A stretch of DNA of 64,000 bases. It comes from Kaistella sp. Its GTDB lineage: Bacteria; Bacteroidota; Bacteroidia; Flavobacteriales; Weeksellaceae. Below the pieces are notes generated by a model. It saw only the letters and a program-made list of their open reading frames with translations, searched no databases and was not told the DNA's origin. Position numbers and translations under genes: made by a program. The stretch lies in the NCBI RefSeq assembly GCF_041824135.1, contig NZ_JBGZYM010000084.1, positions 102,067-166,066 on the forward strand, in the 5' to 3' direction. Below are positions 32,737 through 59,877 of the stretch, piece after piece (the stretch's first letter is position 1; each line of letters starts with the position of its first letter).

Positions 32737-33687
32737 ATGAAATTTAGAACAGAAGTAGAAATTCCAAATTCTAGCAAAAAAATAGATATTGAAGATCAAA
32801 TCTTTTCAATCGGCTCCTGCTTTTCAACCGAAATGACCGATCTTTTAAAAGACGGACAATTGCAGACTTTCAATAATCCTTTTGGAACACTTTTCAATCC
32901 TTTTTCGATCAACCATGCAGTTTCTAAATTGCACAATGCCGAATTTTACGAAGAAGGAGATTTGATTAGTTTTAACGAAGAAGTAATTTCTTTGGATCAT
33001 CACACGTCGTTTAATACGCGATTTGTACATCAGACTCTAGACAAGATTAATAGTCAGATAGAAGCTGGGAATCAGTTTTTAAGGAAGACCAGTTGGATTA
33101 TCATTACGTACGGAACTTCCCATATTTATGAATTTCTGCCGAAGAAAAAACTGGTCTCCAATTGTCACAAAATTCCAGCCAAGTATTTCGAAAAAAGATT
33201 TCTCACTCATTTAGAACTGACAGATTCCATTTACGAAACCGTTGTTAATCTTACCGACATTGCAAAAGACGACGTCCAGATTTTATTCACAGTTTCGCCT
33301 GTTCGTCATACGAAAGACGGGATGGTTGAAAATAATTTGAGTAAAGCGAAGTTGATTACCGCAATCCATGAGATTCTTCCACAATTTGAAAACTGTCATT
33401 ATCTGCCGGCTTATGAAATTCTAATGGATGATTTACGGGATTACCGTTTTTACAAAGAAGATTTAATTCATCCCAATAATCAGGCGATCAATTACATCTG
33501 GGAAAAATTTGGGAATGCTTATTTCTCCGATGAAACCATGGATTTTATTGAAGAAAATTTAAAAATTGCAAGATCTCTAGACCATAAAACCGCCGATGAT
33601 AAAGATCCAAAATATCAGGAATTTTTGGGAAAGTTAAAAGAAAGAATTTCGATCCAACAATCGAAAGTGAAGCATAAAATATTTTAA
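32737..33687 (+). CDS. GSCFA domain protein (SGNH-like)
   Basis: GSCFS, NPFGT, TVSPVRH and DDLRDYRFY..D..HP. Confidence 0.9.
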   Translation: MKFRTEVEIPNSSKKIDIEDQIFSIGSCFSTEMTDLLKDGQLQTFNNPFGTLFNPFSINHAVSKLHNAEFYEEGDLISFNEEVISLDHHTSFNTRFVHQTLDKINSQIEAGNQFLRKTSWIIITYGTSHIYEFLPKKKLVSNCHKIPAKYFEKRFLTHLELTDSIYETVVNLTDIAKDDVQILFTVSPVRHTKDGMVENNLSKAKLITAIHEILPQFENCHYLPAYEILMDDLRDYRFYKEDLIHPNNQAINYIWEKFGNAYFSDETMDFIEENLKIARSLDHKTADDKDPKYQEFLGKLKERISIQQSKVKHKIF

Positions 33688-33692
33688 AATCA

Positions 33693-33776
33693 TTTGGGCA
33701 GACATTTCCGCCTTCCGCTCCCGCTTTTTTATTTCGCTGCGCTACACAAAAAGAGCTCCGCTCAAGTCGGGCTGCA
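33693..33776. repeat. Structured intergenic repeat, copy B
   Basis: Same flanking blocks as 11580-11672 with a different central segment. Confidence 0.85.
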
Positions 33777-33849
33777 GCGGGGAACTCAATAGAAACTTTG
33801 GTTTGTTAATTTAAAATCTAATATCTGTCACCTAAAAATTACCACAAAA

Positions 33850-47709: not shown

Positions 47710-47809
47710 GGAGCTTCATCCCGCTTTCCACTATACCTGCCTGCCGGCAGGCAGGTCTTTTTTTCGTCGTTCCTCCTCAAAAAAGGATGCCGTTGCAATC
47801 GGGGCTAGG
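47710..47809. repeat. Structured intergenic element carrying a perfect palindrome insert
   Basis: ccgctttccactata[cctgcctgccggcaggcagg]tcttttt..aaaaaggatgccgttgcaatcgggg; same architecture as copies A and B. Confidence 0.7.
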
Positions 47810-47905
47810 ATTCAGGTTGCCCCATAAAAATAAGAGATAGTTGCTTCAGTTGATCCATCATCAAAGCAGTCCTGTTTATTATTTTCAAAATAAAGTTTTA
47901 TAAAA

Positions 47906-56532: not shown

Positions 56533-56850
56533 ATGGCATTAGAAATTACAGATCAATCATTTCAGGAAATGGTTTTGAATTCAGATAAACCGGTATTGGT
56601 AGATTTTTGGGCAGTATGGTGTGGACCGTGTAGAACACTTGGACCAATTATCGAAGAAGTAGCGACTGATTTCGAAGGAAAAGCAATCGTAGGAAAAGTA
56701 GATGTAGATAACAACCAGCAGGTTTCTGTGGACTACGGAATTAGAAATATTCCTACTGTTTTAATTTTCAAAAACGGAGAAGTGGTAGATAAAATTGTCG
56801 GTGTAGCTTCAAAAGAAGTGATCGCTGAAAAATTATCAGCACATTTATAA
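56533..56850 (+). CDS. trxA: Thioredoxin
   Basis: WCGPC motif in a 105-aa protein. Confidence 0.97.
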   Translation: MALEITDQSFQEMVLNSDKPVLVDFWAVWCGPCRTLGPIIEEVATDFEGKAIVGKVDVDNNQQVSVDYGIRNIPTVLIFKNGEVVDKIVGVASKEVIAEKLSAHL

Positions 56851-56982: not shown

Positions 56983-57055
56983 CACGATAACTCAATTGAT
57001 TAGAGCATCACCAAGTCACCTCCGTAAGAGTTGATGAATCGAGTTCAAGTCAAAA
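56983..57055 (+). pseudogene. Degenerate tRNA-like relic
   Basis: taactcaattgattagagc (D-arm-like), gtca at the anticodon spacing and gagttcaagtc (T-loop-like); stems broken. Confidence 0.5.
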
Positions 57056-57079: not shown

Positions 57080-57153
57080 GATCCGGTAGTTCAGCTGGTT
57101 AGAATGCCGCCCTGTCACGGCGGAGGTCGCGGGTTCGAATCCCGTCCGGATCG
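57080..57153 (+). tRNA. tRNA-Asp(GTC), copy 1
   Basis: 74-nt cloverleaf: GATCCGG/CCGGATC acceptor, CCGCC/GGCGG anticodon stem with CTGTCAC loop and TTCGAAT T-loop; CCA not encoded. Confidence 0.97.
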
Positions 57154-57223
57154 CTTTTTTATAAATTACTACTAATTTGTAAAATGCACTATAAAAGTTT
57201 ATCAATACTTTTTCAAAAAAATT

Positions 57224-57297
57224 GATCCGGTAGTTCAGCTGGTTAGAATGCCGCCCTGTCACGGCGGAGGTCGCGGGTTCGAATCCCGTCCGGATCG
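57224..57297 (+). tRNA. tRNA-Asp(GTC), copy 2 (identical to copy 1)
   Basis: Same 74-nt sequence as 57080-57153. Confidence 0.97.
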
Positions 57298-57300
57298 CTA

Positions 57301-57334
57301 ATCTCTCAAATAATTTTTGAGAGATTTTTTTTTT
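57301..57334 (+). terminator. Intrinsic terminator after tRNA-Asp, repeated in every array unit
   Basis: atctctcaaa / tttgagagat stem plus T-tract; copies at 57647, 57990 and 58335. Confidence 0.85.
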
Positions 57335-57335
57335 G

Positions 57336-57575
57336 ATGTGATTTTACGTTTACATACTTTATTCCGCAAGCTTAGATATTTACTACAAAGGTTTTTCGAC
57401 TGATGTAGAGAAGCGTCTGGAATACTATTTAAATTCAAAACATAAATTTACTTCTCAAACTAAAGATTGGGTGATTGTGTATGTTCAACAATTTGAGGAA
57501 AAAGAAGCAGCTTTGAAAGAAGAAAAAAGATTAAAGAAACTCAATCGTAAATCTATAGAGAATTTGATTGGTTAG
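57336..57575 (+). pseudogene. GIY-YIG nuclease copy 1, stop at codon 2
   Basis: atg tga ttt tac gtt tac..; the rest of the frame is open to ..ttg att ggt tag. Confidence 0.85.
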
Positions 57576-57679
57576 AATGCAGATCTGTCATCTCGTCAGC
57601 TGCTGACGAGACGGGTTCGAATCCTCTCGTTTCTGGAACGAGACAAATCTCTCAAATCATTTTGAGAGATTTTTTTTTG

Positions 57680-57910
57680 ATGAGATTTTACGTTTACATA
57701 CTTTATTCTGCAAGCTTAGATATTTACTACAAAGGTTTTTCGACTGATGTAGAGACGCGTCTGGAATATCATTTAAATTCAAAACATAAATTTACTTCCC
57801 AAACTACAGATTGGGTGATTGTGTATGTTCAACAATTTGCTGAAAAAGAAGCAGCTTTGAAAGAAGAAAAAAGATTAAAGAAACTAAACCGTAAATCCAT
57901 AGAAAATTGA
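57680..57910 (+). CDS. GIY-YIG nuclease copy 2, shortened by 3 residues through a 1-nt deletion near the 3' end
   Basis: MRFYVYILYS..YYKGFSTDVETRLEYH..ALKEEKRLK; ends gaa aat tga instead of gaa aaa ttg att ggt tag. Confidence 0.85.
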   Translation: MRFYVYILYSASLDIYYKGFSTDVETRLEYHLNSKHKFTSQTTDWVIVYVQQFAEKEAALKEEKRLKKLNRKSIEN

Positions 57911-58023
57911 TTGGTTAGAATGCCGATCTGTAATCTCGTCAGCAGCTGACGAGACGGGTTCGAATCCTCTCGTTTTTGGAACGAGACCAATCTCTCAAAT
58001 TATTTTTGAGAGATTTTTTTTTA

Positions 58024-58263
58024 ATGAAATTTTACGTTTACATACTTTATTCCGCAAGATTAGATGTTTACTACAAAGGTTTTTCAACTGATGTAGAAAA
58101 GCGTTTGGATTACCATTTAAATTCAAAACATAAATTTACTTCTCAAACAAAAGATTGGGTGATTATGTATGTTCAAGAATTTGCTGAAAAAGAAGCAGCT
58201 TTGAAAGAAGAAAAAAGATTAAAGAAACTAAACCGTAAATCCATAGAAAAATTGATTGGTTAG
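58024..58263 (+). CDS. Small stand-alone GIY-YIG nuclease, copy 3 (intact, 79 aa)
   Basis: FYVY..YYKG (GIY..YIG equivalents), conserved Arg in KRL and Glu in ALKEEK. Confidence 0.92.
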   Translation: MKFYVYILYSARLDVYYKGFSTDVEKRLDYHLNSKHKFTSQTKDWVIMYVQEFAEKEAALKEEKRLKKLNRKSIEKLIG

Positions 58264-58366
58264 AATGCCGCTGTGTCATCTCGTCAGCAGCTGACGAGAC
58301 GGGTTCGAATCCTCTCGTTTTTATAAGGAGACAAATCTCTCAAATTATTTTGGGAGATTTTTTTTA

Positions 58367-58386
58367 ATGAAATTTTACGTTTACAC
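58367..58386 (+). pseudogene. Stub of a fourth GIY-YIG copy (first ~6 codons)
   Basis: atgaaattttacgtttacac matches the start of copy 3, then similarity ends abruptly. Confidence 0.75.
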
Positions 58387-58608: not shown

Positions 58609-59877
58609 ATGAAACCCAGTGTTATTTCAATTGTTCTCGGTGGAGGAAGAGGCGCCAGGTTAGCTCCTTTAACCAATACAAGATCCAAACCGGCAGTTCC
58701 GATTGCAGGAAAGTACAGGTTAGTTGATATCCCTATTTCCAACTGTCTTAATTCTGGTTTTAACCGTATTCTGGTGCTGACGCAGTTCAATTCTGCATCC
58801 CTGAATTCTCATATTAAAAATTCATTTCACTTCGATATTTTCAGCAAAGGTTTTGTGGATATTTTGGCAGCGGAACAAAACATAGAAAGTGATGCTTGGT
58901 ATCAAGGTACCGCAGATGCCGTGAGACAATCCATGAAACATTTGGATAAATACGATTACGAATATATTCTAATCCTTTCTGGCGATCAGTTGTATCAAAT
59001 GGATTTCCGTGAAATGATCGACTTTCACTGTAAGAACAAAGGCGATATTACCATTGCTACGATTCCAGTAAATGCGCATGATGCTACAGGATTCGGTATT
59101 TTAAAATCTGATGAAGAAGGGAATATTACATCATTTATTGAAAAACCTTCTGGTGAAGCTTTAAATGATTGGAAATCTGAAGTTTCTGAAAAAAATAAAG
59201 GTGAGGGAAAAGAATATCTTGCCTCCATGGGAATCTACGTTTTCAACAAAAGTGGCTTGAAAAAGATGTTTGATGAAGATGCTGGTGATGATTTTGGTGG
59301 AGAATTAATTCCAAACGGGATTGGAAAATATAAAACATTAAGTTTTCAATATGATGGCTATTGGACCGACATAGGAACAATACAGTCATTTTTTGATGCT
59401 AATTTAGATTTAACAACTGATTTTCCTAAGTTTAACTTGTTCAGTAAATCTCCTATTTATACAAGAGCGAGAATGCTGCCACCTTCTAAGATTTTGGGAT
59501 CGTACGTTAGTAAAGCAGTATTTGGTGATGGCTGTATTATAATGGCTGATAAAATTGAAAATTCAATTGTAGGAAACAGAAGCCGTGTAGATCGAGGAAG
59601 TACCATCATGAATTCGTATATGATGGGTGCTGATTTTTATCAGGACACCAAGGAAATTGTATCGAATGACAATAGCGGAACTCCTAATTTGGGTGTTGGT
59701 AAATATTGTTATATCGAACGCGCCATTCTTGATAAAAATTGTAGAATCGGCGACAATGTAAGAATCATTGGTGGCCAACATTTACCAGATGGCGATTTTG
59801 ACAGCCACTCCATTAAAGATGGGATCGTCATTGTAAAAAAGAATGCCGTCATCACAGCAGGAACTCAGATTCCTTAA
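58609..59877 (+). CDS. glgC: Glucose-1-phosphate adenylyltransferase
   Basis: LGGGRG.RL.PLT..RSKPAVP, GTADAV, SGDQLY, FIEKP and ASMGIY. Confidence 0.97.
   Translation: MKPSVISIVLGGGRGARLAPLTNTRSKPAVPIAGKYRLVDIPISNCLNSGFNRILVLTQFNSASLNSHIKNSFHFDIFSKGFVDILAAEQNIESDAWYQGTADAVRQSMKHLDKYDYEYILILSGDQLYQMDFREMIDFHCKNKGDITIATIPVNAHDATGFGILKSDEEGNITSFIEKPSGEALNDWKSEVSEKNKGEGKEYLASMGIYVFNKSGLKKMFDEDAGDDFGGELIPNGIGKYKTLSFQYDGYWTDIGTIQSFFDANLDLTTDFPKFNLFSKSPIYTRARMLPPSKILGSYVSKAVFGDGCIIMADKIENSIVGNRSRVDRGSTIMNSYMMGADFYQDTKEIVSNDNSGTPNLGVGKYCYIERAILDKNCRIGDNVRIIGGQHLPDGDFDSHSIKDGIVIVKKNAVITAGTQIP

Follow-up and report, generated by a model that had tools for sequence, protein, structure and literature searches.

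A tandem array of small nuclease genes adjoins the tRNA-Asp genes of a Kaistella sp. genome, in a stretch of 64,000 nucleotides of contig NZ_JBGZYM010000084.1 (positions 102,067 to 166,066 of the forward strand; this whole stretch is referred to as the window). We interpret the array, with a probability of roughly 0.55, as a tRNA-resident cassette in tandem copies. It would pair a minimal GIY-YIG nuclease with a cognate hairpin placed inside a disabled tRNA copy, and would be nicked by the nuclease and spread by recombination. Our verdict is a selfish cassette that carries no integrase and recombines via its tRNA-derived repeats, with the nuclease as the presumed trigger. Cassettes of this type are widespread at many tRNA genes in many lineages, with a patchy distribution.

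The array is a 344-bp tandem repeat at positions 57300-58385 (3.2 copies, 93% matches, 0% indels by Tandem Repeats Finder (TRF)) that begins immediately 3' of the second of two intact tRNA-Asp(GTC) genes. These two are the only tRNA-Asp genes among the 36 tRNAs detected by ARAGORN in the whole 3.19-Mb draft assembly. Each unit comprises a terminator-like hairpin with a T-tract, an open reading frame (ORF) of 79 codons encoding a GIY-YIG protein, and a piece derived from tRNA-Asp. The ORF starts 3-5 nt past the T-tract of its unit's terminator. Four such terminators are present in the array (1.0 expected from shuffled sequences). The first is the terminator of the host tRNA operon, which is copied in each unit and also follows tRNA-Asp in cassette-free congeners. 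Pfam GIY-YIG (PF01541) is matched by each of the three ORFs (E-values of 4e-12 to 6e-14), and only that of copy 3 is intact. TRF, ARAGORN, Rfam and Pfam thus agree with an earlier note on this DNA, which had described, from the letters alone, three units and a stub in tandem after the second tRNA-Asp.

The tRNA-derived piece retains tRNA positions ~14-38, from the D-loop to the anticodon loop (ending ..CTGTCA), and the T-loop (CGGGTTCGAATCC). Between them, the palindrome TCTCGTCAG-CAG-CTGACGAGA replaces 12 nt at tRNA positions 39-50, which comprise the 3' side of the anticodon stem, the variable loop and the beginning of the T-stem. The 3' strand of the acceptor stem has likewise given way to a related palindrome, TCTCGTT-loop-AACGAGA. 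The earlier note had called this piece a tRNA-Asp 3' fragment. Its tRNA origin stands, but it is not a plain 3' fragment, given these two replacements. In the window and in Flavobacterium, the pseudo-tRNA lacks the 5' acceptor strand and its T-stem is interrupted by the second hairpin, and a tRNA-like fold is therefore not conserved there. Rfam searches of the tRNA-like fragments returned nothing beyond sub-threshold chance matches. The ORF stop codon lies inside the D-loop-derived GGTTAGAAT in the window, as had been noticed before. The overlap of stop codon and tRNA sequence holds in Kaistella, Epilithonimonas and some Chryseobacterium, but it is not a general trait: in most Flavobacterium loci the hairpin begins 24-43 nt past the ORF stop, so that the tRNA fragment abuts the stop or trails it by up to ~18 nt.

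The association with tRNA genes extends far beyond this genome. We scanned one genome per species and collected 57 loci encoding relatives of the protein. A same-strand tRNA gene lies upstream of the ORF in about 50 of the 57, typically 30-70 bp away, and in 10 of 10 loci with upstream sequence present in a second, independent sample from the order (Flavobacteriales). A unit without an integrase that is tied to tRNA genes had been proposed in the earlier note, and these frequencies are far above chance. Over both samples the linked tRNA types are Asp, Ala, Val, Arg, Asn, His, Leu, Gln and Ser; the second sample contributed tRNA-Ala(GGC) and tRNA-Arg(TCT). All relatives with at least 45% identity are located behind tRNA-Asp, and come from Kaistella, Epilithonimonas, Chryseobacterium, Flavobacterium, Chitinophaga, Bacteroidales and other Bacteroidota metagenome-assembled genomes (MAGs). 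More distant relatives are found behind tRNA-Val, His, Leu, Asn, Arg, Gln or Ser, and include sequences from Ignavibacteriota, phyla of the candidate phyla radiation (CPR), an Acidoferrum MAG, Micavibrio and one gammaproteobacterium.

Most of the homologous loci carry a hairpin-substituted tRNA copy downstream. On the 3' side of the ORF, tRNA positions ~14-38 and 51-76 and the host terminator recur, often 100% identical to the upstream tRNA locus, and the stretch between the two repeated parts is longer than in the tRNA. This identity to the host tRNA flank fits the suggestion, made from the window alone, that the tRNA fragment resembles a homology arm. Tandem arrays are present in at least 15 species-level loci, with periods of ~340-520 bp (mostly 350-400 bp).

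In nearly all loci, a hairpin is found between 20 nt upstream and 56 nt downstream of the stop codon, and its sequence depends on the linked tRNA. The insert is uniform in the Asp clade (..CTGTCA / TCTCGTC-loop-GACGAGA / CGGGTTCGAGTCC..). We collected 29 distinct TCTCGTC..GACGAGA variants, every one of them between ..CTGTCA and CGGGTTCG. Their 7-bp stem is nearly invariant, the loop ranges from 1 to 13 nt, and inner extensions of the stem remain complementary (a mean of 1.9 pairs over and above those that the search pattern imposes, versus 0.02 in shuffles). Stem changes are rare and compensatory (TCTCGGC/GCCGAGA). Across Weeksellaceae, Chitinophagaceae and Bacteroidales this stem is kept, although loop and tRNA-derived flanks vary. 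At the tRNA-Ala, tRNA-Val and tRNA-Arg(TCT) cassettes, a TCCCGA..TCGGGA hairpin replaces the anticodon arm, and one of these hairpin-bearing copies is folded as a tRNA by ARAGORN. The tRNA-Asn cassettes also carry TCCCGA-type hairpins, with the 5' half of the anticodon arm replaced in the one case aligned. At tRNA-Arg(TCG), the hairpin ACCTGCCTG-CCGG-CAGGCAGGT is inserted between positions 31 and 32. Each tRNA-linked clade with its own hairpin (TCTCGTC, TCCCGA and CCTGCCTGCC types) adds to a catalogue of nuclease and hairpin pairs in which specificities for cutting single-stranded DNA (ssDNA) can be tested. Two other origins of the palindromes were rejected. An attenuator-like reading, in which TCTCG and CGAGA form alternative pairings, conflicts with the conservation of the hairpins as separate units in other genera, and palindromic filler left by hairpin-end repair conflicts with the recurrence of the identical palindrome at unrelated sites.

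The protein itself appears to consist of a catalytic domain only. Pfam GIY-YIG spans residues 2-72 of 79, and Y6, Y17, R27, H31 and E63 are invariant in 37 sequences. The AlphaFold2 model of copy 3 (predicted local distance difference test (pLDDT) 92.5) is one compact domain, a bare GIY-YIG core. Foldseek places UPF0213 protein BH0048 first, the Slx1 nuclease domain next (TM-score 0.66-0.69, root-mean-square deviation 2.3-2.8 Å) and the I-TevI catalytic domain after it. At 79 amino acids, the protein is too short to include the DNA-binding domain that classical homing endonucleases have. Hence the kinship to homing endonucleases put forward earlier is not borne out in the sense of a sequence-reading enzyme, since Pfam, the model and Foldseek all return the catalytic domain only; by its predicted structure the protein looks like a nuclease of the Slx1/UPF0213/Ssn type. 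No NCBIfam family covers it, and PHROGs gave only a weak endonuclease match. Between species, dN/dS (the ratio of nonsynonymous to synonymous substitution rates) is 0.05-0.09, with dS saturated, which indicates that the ORF is under strong purifying selection. The GIY-YIG gene is the sole ORF family in the 344-bp unit, and no integrase was found there. Duplication of an integrase-type attachment site was rejected because of this lack and because a hairpin is substituted into the tRNA copy.

The locus takes several forms among relatives. Most Kaistella congeners are empty at this locus, with trxA, one or two tRNA-Asp genes and glgC in the same order and the same terminator behind the tRNA. Congener G007 has one ORF and several ORF-less units, and in G004 the ORF is frameshifted. 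In G017 we found an array of five ~110-bp ORF-less hairpin units, and full-length tRNA-Asp copies in which positions 39-50 are replaced by the hairpin, one of them preceding the intact tRNA. Both the copy-number variation and the empty alleles that the earlier note had asked about thus occur within the genus. The congeners' intergenic DNA is too divergent to define exact insertion boundaries. The states seen (empty sites, single units, tandem arrays, ORF-less arrays and hairpin-converted full-length tRNA copies) are all those expected from recombination between tRNA-derived direct repeats. Among 301 genomes sampled from the order, 15 encode a relative of the protein at E<=1e-12 and four have the Asp-type hairpin-in-tRNA pattern. 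The protein tree groups by tRNA type (22 label changes versus 39.7 in shuffles), with an Asp clade of 55 rows (support 94/97).

The hairpins are not confined to the cassettes. The pattern TCTCGTC-N3-9-GACGAGA occurs 12 times in the genome (four times for a reversed-pattern control). Nine of these 12 Asp-type palindromes are outside the array, mostly within other small structured repeats, where they replace different segments. The count of Asp-type palindromes is bimodal among 41 congeners. The Asp-type gene is present in 7 of the 10 congeners with at least three palindromes versus 2 of the 31 with fewer (Fisher p 1.6e-4, calculated over kin that are not independent), and the gene-bearing congeners include near and distant relatives of the source genome alike. 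We treat this association of palindrome and gene as a lead, not as a result.

The same genome contains a second cassette, outside the window, at C117:51900-52407 (locus L004). It consists of tRNA-Arg(TCG), a terminator, an 80-codon GIY-YIG ORF (C117:51973-52212, 33% identical to copy 3), a tRNA-Arg copy and the identical terminator again. The tRNA-Arg copy spans the D-arm to CCA and holds a 20-bp palindrome between positions 31 and 32. Orthologs of the L004 gene in two congeners (65% identity) adjoin the identical 20-bp palindrome, and pseudogenes are found in two more. The perfect 20-bp Arg-type palindrome, CCTGCCTGCCGGCAGGCAGG, occurs four times in this genome of ~35% GC. One occurrence, at window positions 47736-47755, interrupts a match to the Flavo-1 RNA (RF01705, 43.1 bits, 47713-47810, minus strand); in two other Flavo-1 copies a TCTCGT..ACGAGA hairpin is located directly behind the RNA.

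The closest described system is the Ssn family. SsnA of Neisseria meningitidis is a single-domain GIY-YIG protein of 94 amino acids (cd10448) that binds the NTS/SRM hairpin only as ssDNA, on one strand only, and cuts a few nucleotides upstream of it, leaving RNA unbound (Chenal et al., Nat Commun 2025, PMC11893778). Both sequence and structure are required for recognition, with the greatest weight on the C that directly follows the palindrome and on the bases immediately before it, and mutants in Y6, Y17 and E64 abolish cleavage (PMC11893778). NTS/SRM repeats flank the ssn gene and are dispersed in hundreds of copies in Neisseria, a layout that the authors likened to insertion sequences (IS) and to repetitive extragenic palindromes with their associated tyrosine transposases (REP/RAYT). 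The proposed role is the modulation of recombination or natural transformation, and tRNA is not mentioned in the paper (PMC11893778).

The Kaistella cassette shares with Ssn a single-domain GIY-YIG protein of 79-94 amino acids with no DNA-binding domain, the numbering of the catalytic residues (Y6, Y17, E63/64), and a hairpin repeat adjoining the gene, which gives a hairpin-gene-hairpin architecture within the arrays. The flanks are also alike: an oriented 5' flank (GTCAT here, derived from anticodon GTC and A37; CGTCAT in NTS), a stem starting with TCYCG and a C directly after the palindrome. In both systems stem sequence and structure are conserved and extra copies are dispersed; here the dispersed copies may occur preferentially in gene-bearing genomes, a tendency seen among kin that are not independent and with the three exceptions given below. 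A relaxed form of the SRM (HGTCWY, a TCYCG hairpin and C) matches units 1 and 3. Unlike in Neisseria, the hairpin here is inside a disabled tRNA copy, the gene is part of a tRNA operon, the units are in tandem and the genome holds ~10 copies rather than hundreds. By analogy, the cassette seems to work like an Ssn/SRM pair, and its enzymology was probably already described in 2025 as that of the Ssn family. We found no description of a tRNA-embedded, array-forming cassette in the literature searched.

A second precedent concerns the tandem amplification. SegB of phage T6 is a free-standing GIY-YIG homing endonuclease, encoded in the tRNA gene cluster of T-even phages, that cuts inside tRNA genes at the motif RAWTSGAAC, and is required for the recombination-dependent tandem amplification of a segment with tRNA-Tyr and segB; segB homologs are enriched beside tRNAs of many isotypes (Chihara et al., Nat Commun 2026, PMC13096335). 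We read the SegB motif as resembling the T-loop. Both systems have a GIY-YIG gene beside tRNA genes and tandem segments of tRNA plus nuclease. The phage-borne SegB has neither a cognate hairpin nor a hairpin-substituted pseudo-tRNA, whereas the gene studied here is chromosomal, encodes 79 amino acids and has no phage match. SegB is a protein of ~220 amino acids with a DNA-binding part. Homing endonucleases of the Seg type cleave the allele that lacks their gene while the linked allele is immune, and the hairpin-substituted tRNA copy could be such an immune allele.

Other known systems share single aspects. UPF0213/YhbQ proteins and the nuclease domain of eukaryotic Slx1 are the best sequence and fold matches of the protein. 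Slx1, which has a RING domain and needs Slx4, cuts branched and hairpin DNA in a structure-selective manner, and we know of no described linkage of UPF0213 proteins to tRNA or to a hairpin repeat. REP/RAYT and IS200/IS605 elements also combine a single-copy nuclease gene, flanked by its cognate hairpin, with a dispersed repeat and a proposed action on ssDNA hairpins, but they use the chemistry of HUH tyrosine transposases, reach hundreds of copies, and involve neither GIY-YIG nor embedding in tRNA. Integrase-borne islands at tRNA genes are likewise bounded by an intact tRNA and, at the far end, by a duplicate of the tRNA 3' part. In contrast to these islands, the unit here measures 344 bp, has no integrase, substitutes a hairpin into the duplicate and extends its repeat through the host terminator.

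Taken with these precedents, the arrangement suggests how the cassette may behave. By analogy with SsnA, the nuclease would bind the hairpin on the sense strand when this is single-stranded, during replication, heavy tRNA transcription or transformation, and would nick a few bases upstream of it, within the tRNA-derived sequence. The nick may provide a recombinogenic end that drives unequal exchange and gene conversion, as SegB does for tRNA-Tyr/segB in T6. Gain, loss, amplification and spread to neighbouring tRNA copies would all proceed by homologous recombination between the tRNA-derived repeats, with no integrase, and the highly conserved tRNA sequence might also allow acquisition by new genomes. 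Selection would retain at least one working tRNA-Asp.

Several observations weigh against this interpretation. Arrays, deletions and conversions need only ordinary unequal recombination and no nuclease. Two of the three ORFs in the window are damaged. Copies 2 and 3 each have a single partner among the copies of the related genome UBA5040, and dS is ~0.2 between the array copies and 0.26 between the orthologous copies 3 of the two genomes; the array therefore predates the split of the two genomes and has been stable since. Judged by these values it is old and stable, and ongoing amplification is not seen. We hold the probability of our interpretation at the level given above because ordinary recombination yields the same structures and because the array is old and partly decayed. 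Within the Asp clade the tree partly tracks taxonomy, with some exceptions, so that much of the inheritance may be vertical. A tblastn search of 50,697 phage records and 72,556 plasmids gave no match, which leaves the cassette with no known vehicle for transfer; an origin from a phage gene of the SegB type, or carriage by a plasmid, is correspondingly unsupported. Three congeners hold at least five hairpins with no detectable Asp-type gene. The published degenerate SRM sequence has no match in the window and three in the genome, versus 10 for the reversed control, and the best PDB sequence matches of the protein are two UPF0213 proteins (1ZG2 and 1YWL).

The sufficiency of unequal recombination is also the basis of one alternative. 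A small housekeeping or repair nuclease gene would have come to lie behind tRNA-Asp by chance, and slippage, or crossing-over out of register between the tRNA-derived repeats, would have multiplied the segment; the hairpin and tRNA pieces would then be functionless, decaying debris. The age and stability of the array and its damaged ORFs agree with such passive duplication, which we nevertheless regard as improbable: the three-part layout recurs at at least nine tRNA types in several phyla, the stem persists across Weeksellaceae, Chitinophagaceae and Bacteroidales despite changes in loop and flanks, and the cassette is patchily distributed, empty sites included. Another possibility, which the strong purifying selection on the ORF speaks for, is that the cassette is a domesticated host system of the Ssn type, in which the cutting of hairpin-tagged ssDNA modulates recombination or natural transformation at the only, essential tRNA-Asp locus and at a few dispersed sites, with arrays as a by-product. 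The Ssn precedent and the dispersed hairpins of gene-bearing genomes (the counts among non-independent kin given above) point the same way. It is unlikely, however, as it leaves the constant residence in tRNA operons unexplained, as only ~9 dispersed copies are found here versus hundreds in Neisseria, and as the gene is missing from most congeners and from ~95% of the sampled genomes of the order and has repeatedly become a pseudogene.

The dispersed palindromes could instead be the product of the nuclease, which would act like a REP/RAYT system and copy or move its palindrome into structured DNA targets, among them the anticodon arms of tRNAs, Flavo-1 RNA genes and further repeats; the home copy would be the pseudo-tRNA beside the gene. 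In its favour, the same palindromes are found elsewhere in place of specific segments of structured repeats, a perfect 20-bp palindrome of the Arg type is present four times in an AT-rich genome, and the palindrome count has a bimodal distribution over genomes, in association with the gene. We give this hairpin-mobilising enzyme a rather low chance, as there is no known mechanism by which a GIY-YIG nuclease transposes a sequence of 18-22 bp, three palindrome-rich genomes have no cognate gene, and some of the palindrome matches are ordinary terminators. Finally, the partners could meet at the RNA level, as in type III toxin-antitoxin systems, the nuclease being neutralised or guided by a strongly transcribed, tRNA-like RNA whose hairpin binds the protein, with a terminator between RNA and ORF. 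The terminator does separate the RNA gene or genes from an ORF that starts right behind its T-tract, ORF-less arrays of hairpin units lie upstream of the ORF in G017, the anticodon arm is neatly replaced in the Val, Ala and Arg(TCT) types (with the one copy foldable by ARAGORN), and an older note ties a Slx1-like domain fused to TrmH to RNA metabolism. Yet SsnA does not bind RNA (PMC11893778) and a tRNA-like fold is not conserved in the window and in Flavobacterium, and such an RNA-level pair is very improbable.

A bolder extension of the tRNA-resident cassette is tentative and, in our estimate, has the odds against it. The cassettes may form a distinct class of mobile elements that carry no integrase, in which an Ssn-like nuclease nicks its own hairpin and the conservation of tRNA serves as a portable homology arm. 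Such elements would copy themselves into cognate tRNA operons, locally or in new hosts after transformation, convert neighbouring tRNAs and seed the hairpin into RNA genes like Flavo-1. If this is true, the hairpin-directed ssDNA nucleases of the Ssn family gain a concrete genomic lifestyle: they would reside in tRNA operons, form arrays there and inactivate spare tRNA copies, and the cassette would be a cellular counterpart of the SegB-driven amplification of phage tRNA genes. It also offers a testable account of the tRNA-like debris and the copy-number variation around bacterial tRNA genes.

The features of the locus are collected in Table 1. The array and its tRNA genes are flanked by trxA (56533-56850) on one side and by a glgC-like gene (58609-59877) on the other. 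The relic that precedes the tRNA pair was aligned with tRNA-Asp, with the second tRNA-derived fragment and with a full-length hairpin-tRNA of congener G017, and has the longer spacing characteristic of hairpin-bearing copies. From this alignment it is probably the remnant of a converted tRNA copy, like those preceding the intact tRNA in G017.

Table 1. Features of the tRNA-Asp locus and its GIY-YIG array (positions in the window)
Feature	Position	Strand	Evidence
Decayed tRNA-Asp-like relic, between promoter region and tRNA pair	56983..57055	+	Alignment keeps D-loop, GTCA, T-loop
Intact tRNA-Asp(GTC), copy 1	57080..57154	+	ARAGORN; Rfam tRNA 69.2 bits
Intact tRNA-Asp(GTC), copy 2	57224..57298	+	ARAGORN, Rfam
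Terminator hairpin and T-tract, unit 1	57300..57334	+	Terminator scan
GIY-YIG ORF copy 1, TGA at codon 2	57336..57575	+	Pfam
Pseudo-tRNA-Asp 1: D-loop to anticodon loop, hairpin 1 (57591-57611), T-loop, hairpin 2 (57625-57643)	57563..57644	+	Alignment
Terminator, unit 2	57645..57679	+	Terminator scan
GIY-YIG ORF copy 2, 76 codons; 1-bp deletion near 3' end, frame three codons short	57680..57910	+	Pfam
Pseudo-tRNA-Asp 2: hairpin 1 (57934-57954), hairpin 2 (57968-57986)	57905..57988	+	Alignment
Terminator, unit 3	57989..58023	+	Terminator scan
GIY-YIG ORF copy 3, intact, 79 codons; Y6/Y17/R27/H31/E63 present	58024..58263	+	Pfam E 5.6e-14
Pseudo-tRNA-Asp 3: hairpin 1 (58279-58299), hairpin 2 decayed	58250..58332	+	Alignment
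Terminator, last partial unit	58333..58366	+	Terminator scan
Stub: 19 nt from the start of a fourth ORF; unique DNA follows until glgC (58609)	58367..58385	+	

Two loci in the wider sample have the opposite layout. In Ignavibacterium and Giovannonibacteria MAGs (L076 and L081), the GIY-YIG ORF ends 1-3 nt before an intact tRNA (Arg-CCT and Gly-GCC, respectively) and no tRNA is found upstream within 1.5 kb, a mirror image of the Bacteroidota arrangement.

The palindrome TCCCGAT(A/G)(G/C)C(T/C)ATCGGGA, which belongs to the hairpin type of the GIY-YIG cassettes that other genomes carry at Val, Ala and Arg(TCT) tRNAs, is dispersed in the source genome, often with GCG..TTGCG flanks (for example at C46:777, C75:16740/17007/17109, C101:519, C115:9985, C117:8962 and C117:66678). 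No GIY-YIG gene of the Val, Ala or Arg(TCT) type was found in the source genome despite these palindromes.

A third GIY-YIG paralog, of 107 codons, is located outside the window at C84:33760-36978 (locus L005). It has no adjoining tRNA and is flanked on both sides by arrays of ~85-bp REP-like units (TTGTCACGCTGGAAGCGTCTCC ... AGATTCCTCCGGAATGACAA). Finally, a structured repeat of ~110 nt (TTTGGGCAGACATTTCCGCC..CCCGCTTTTTTGTTCCACT..CAAAAAGAGCTC..GTCGGGCTGCA), unrecognised by Rfam, is present at window positions ~33685-33785 (C84:135755-135850) and in ~15 other genomic copies. In its copies in C69, C70, C78 and C101, TCTCGTC..GACGAGA replaces differing internal segments of the repeat.

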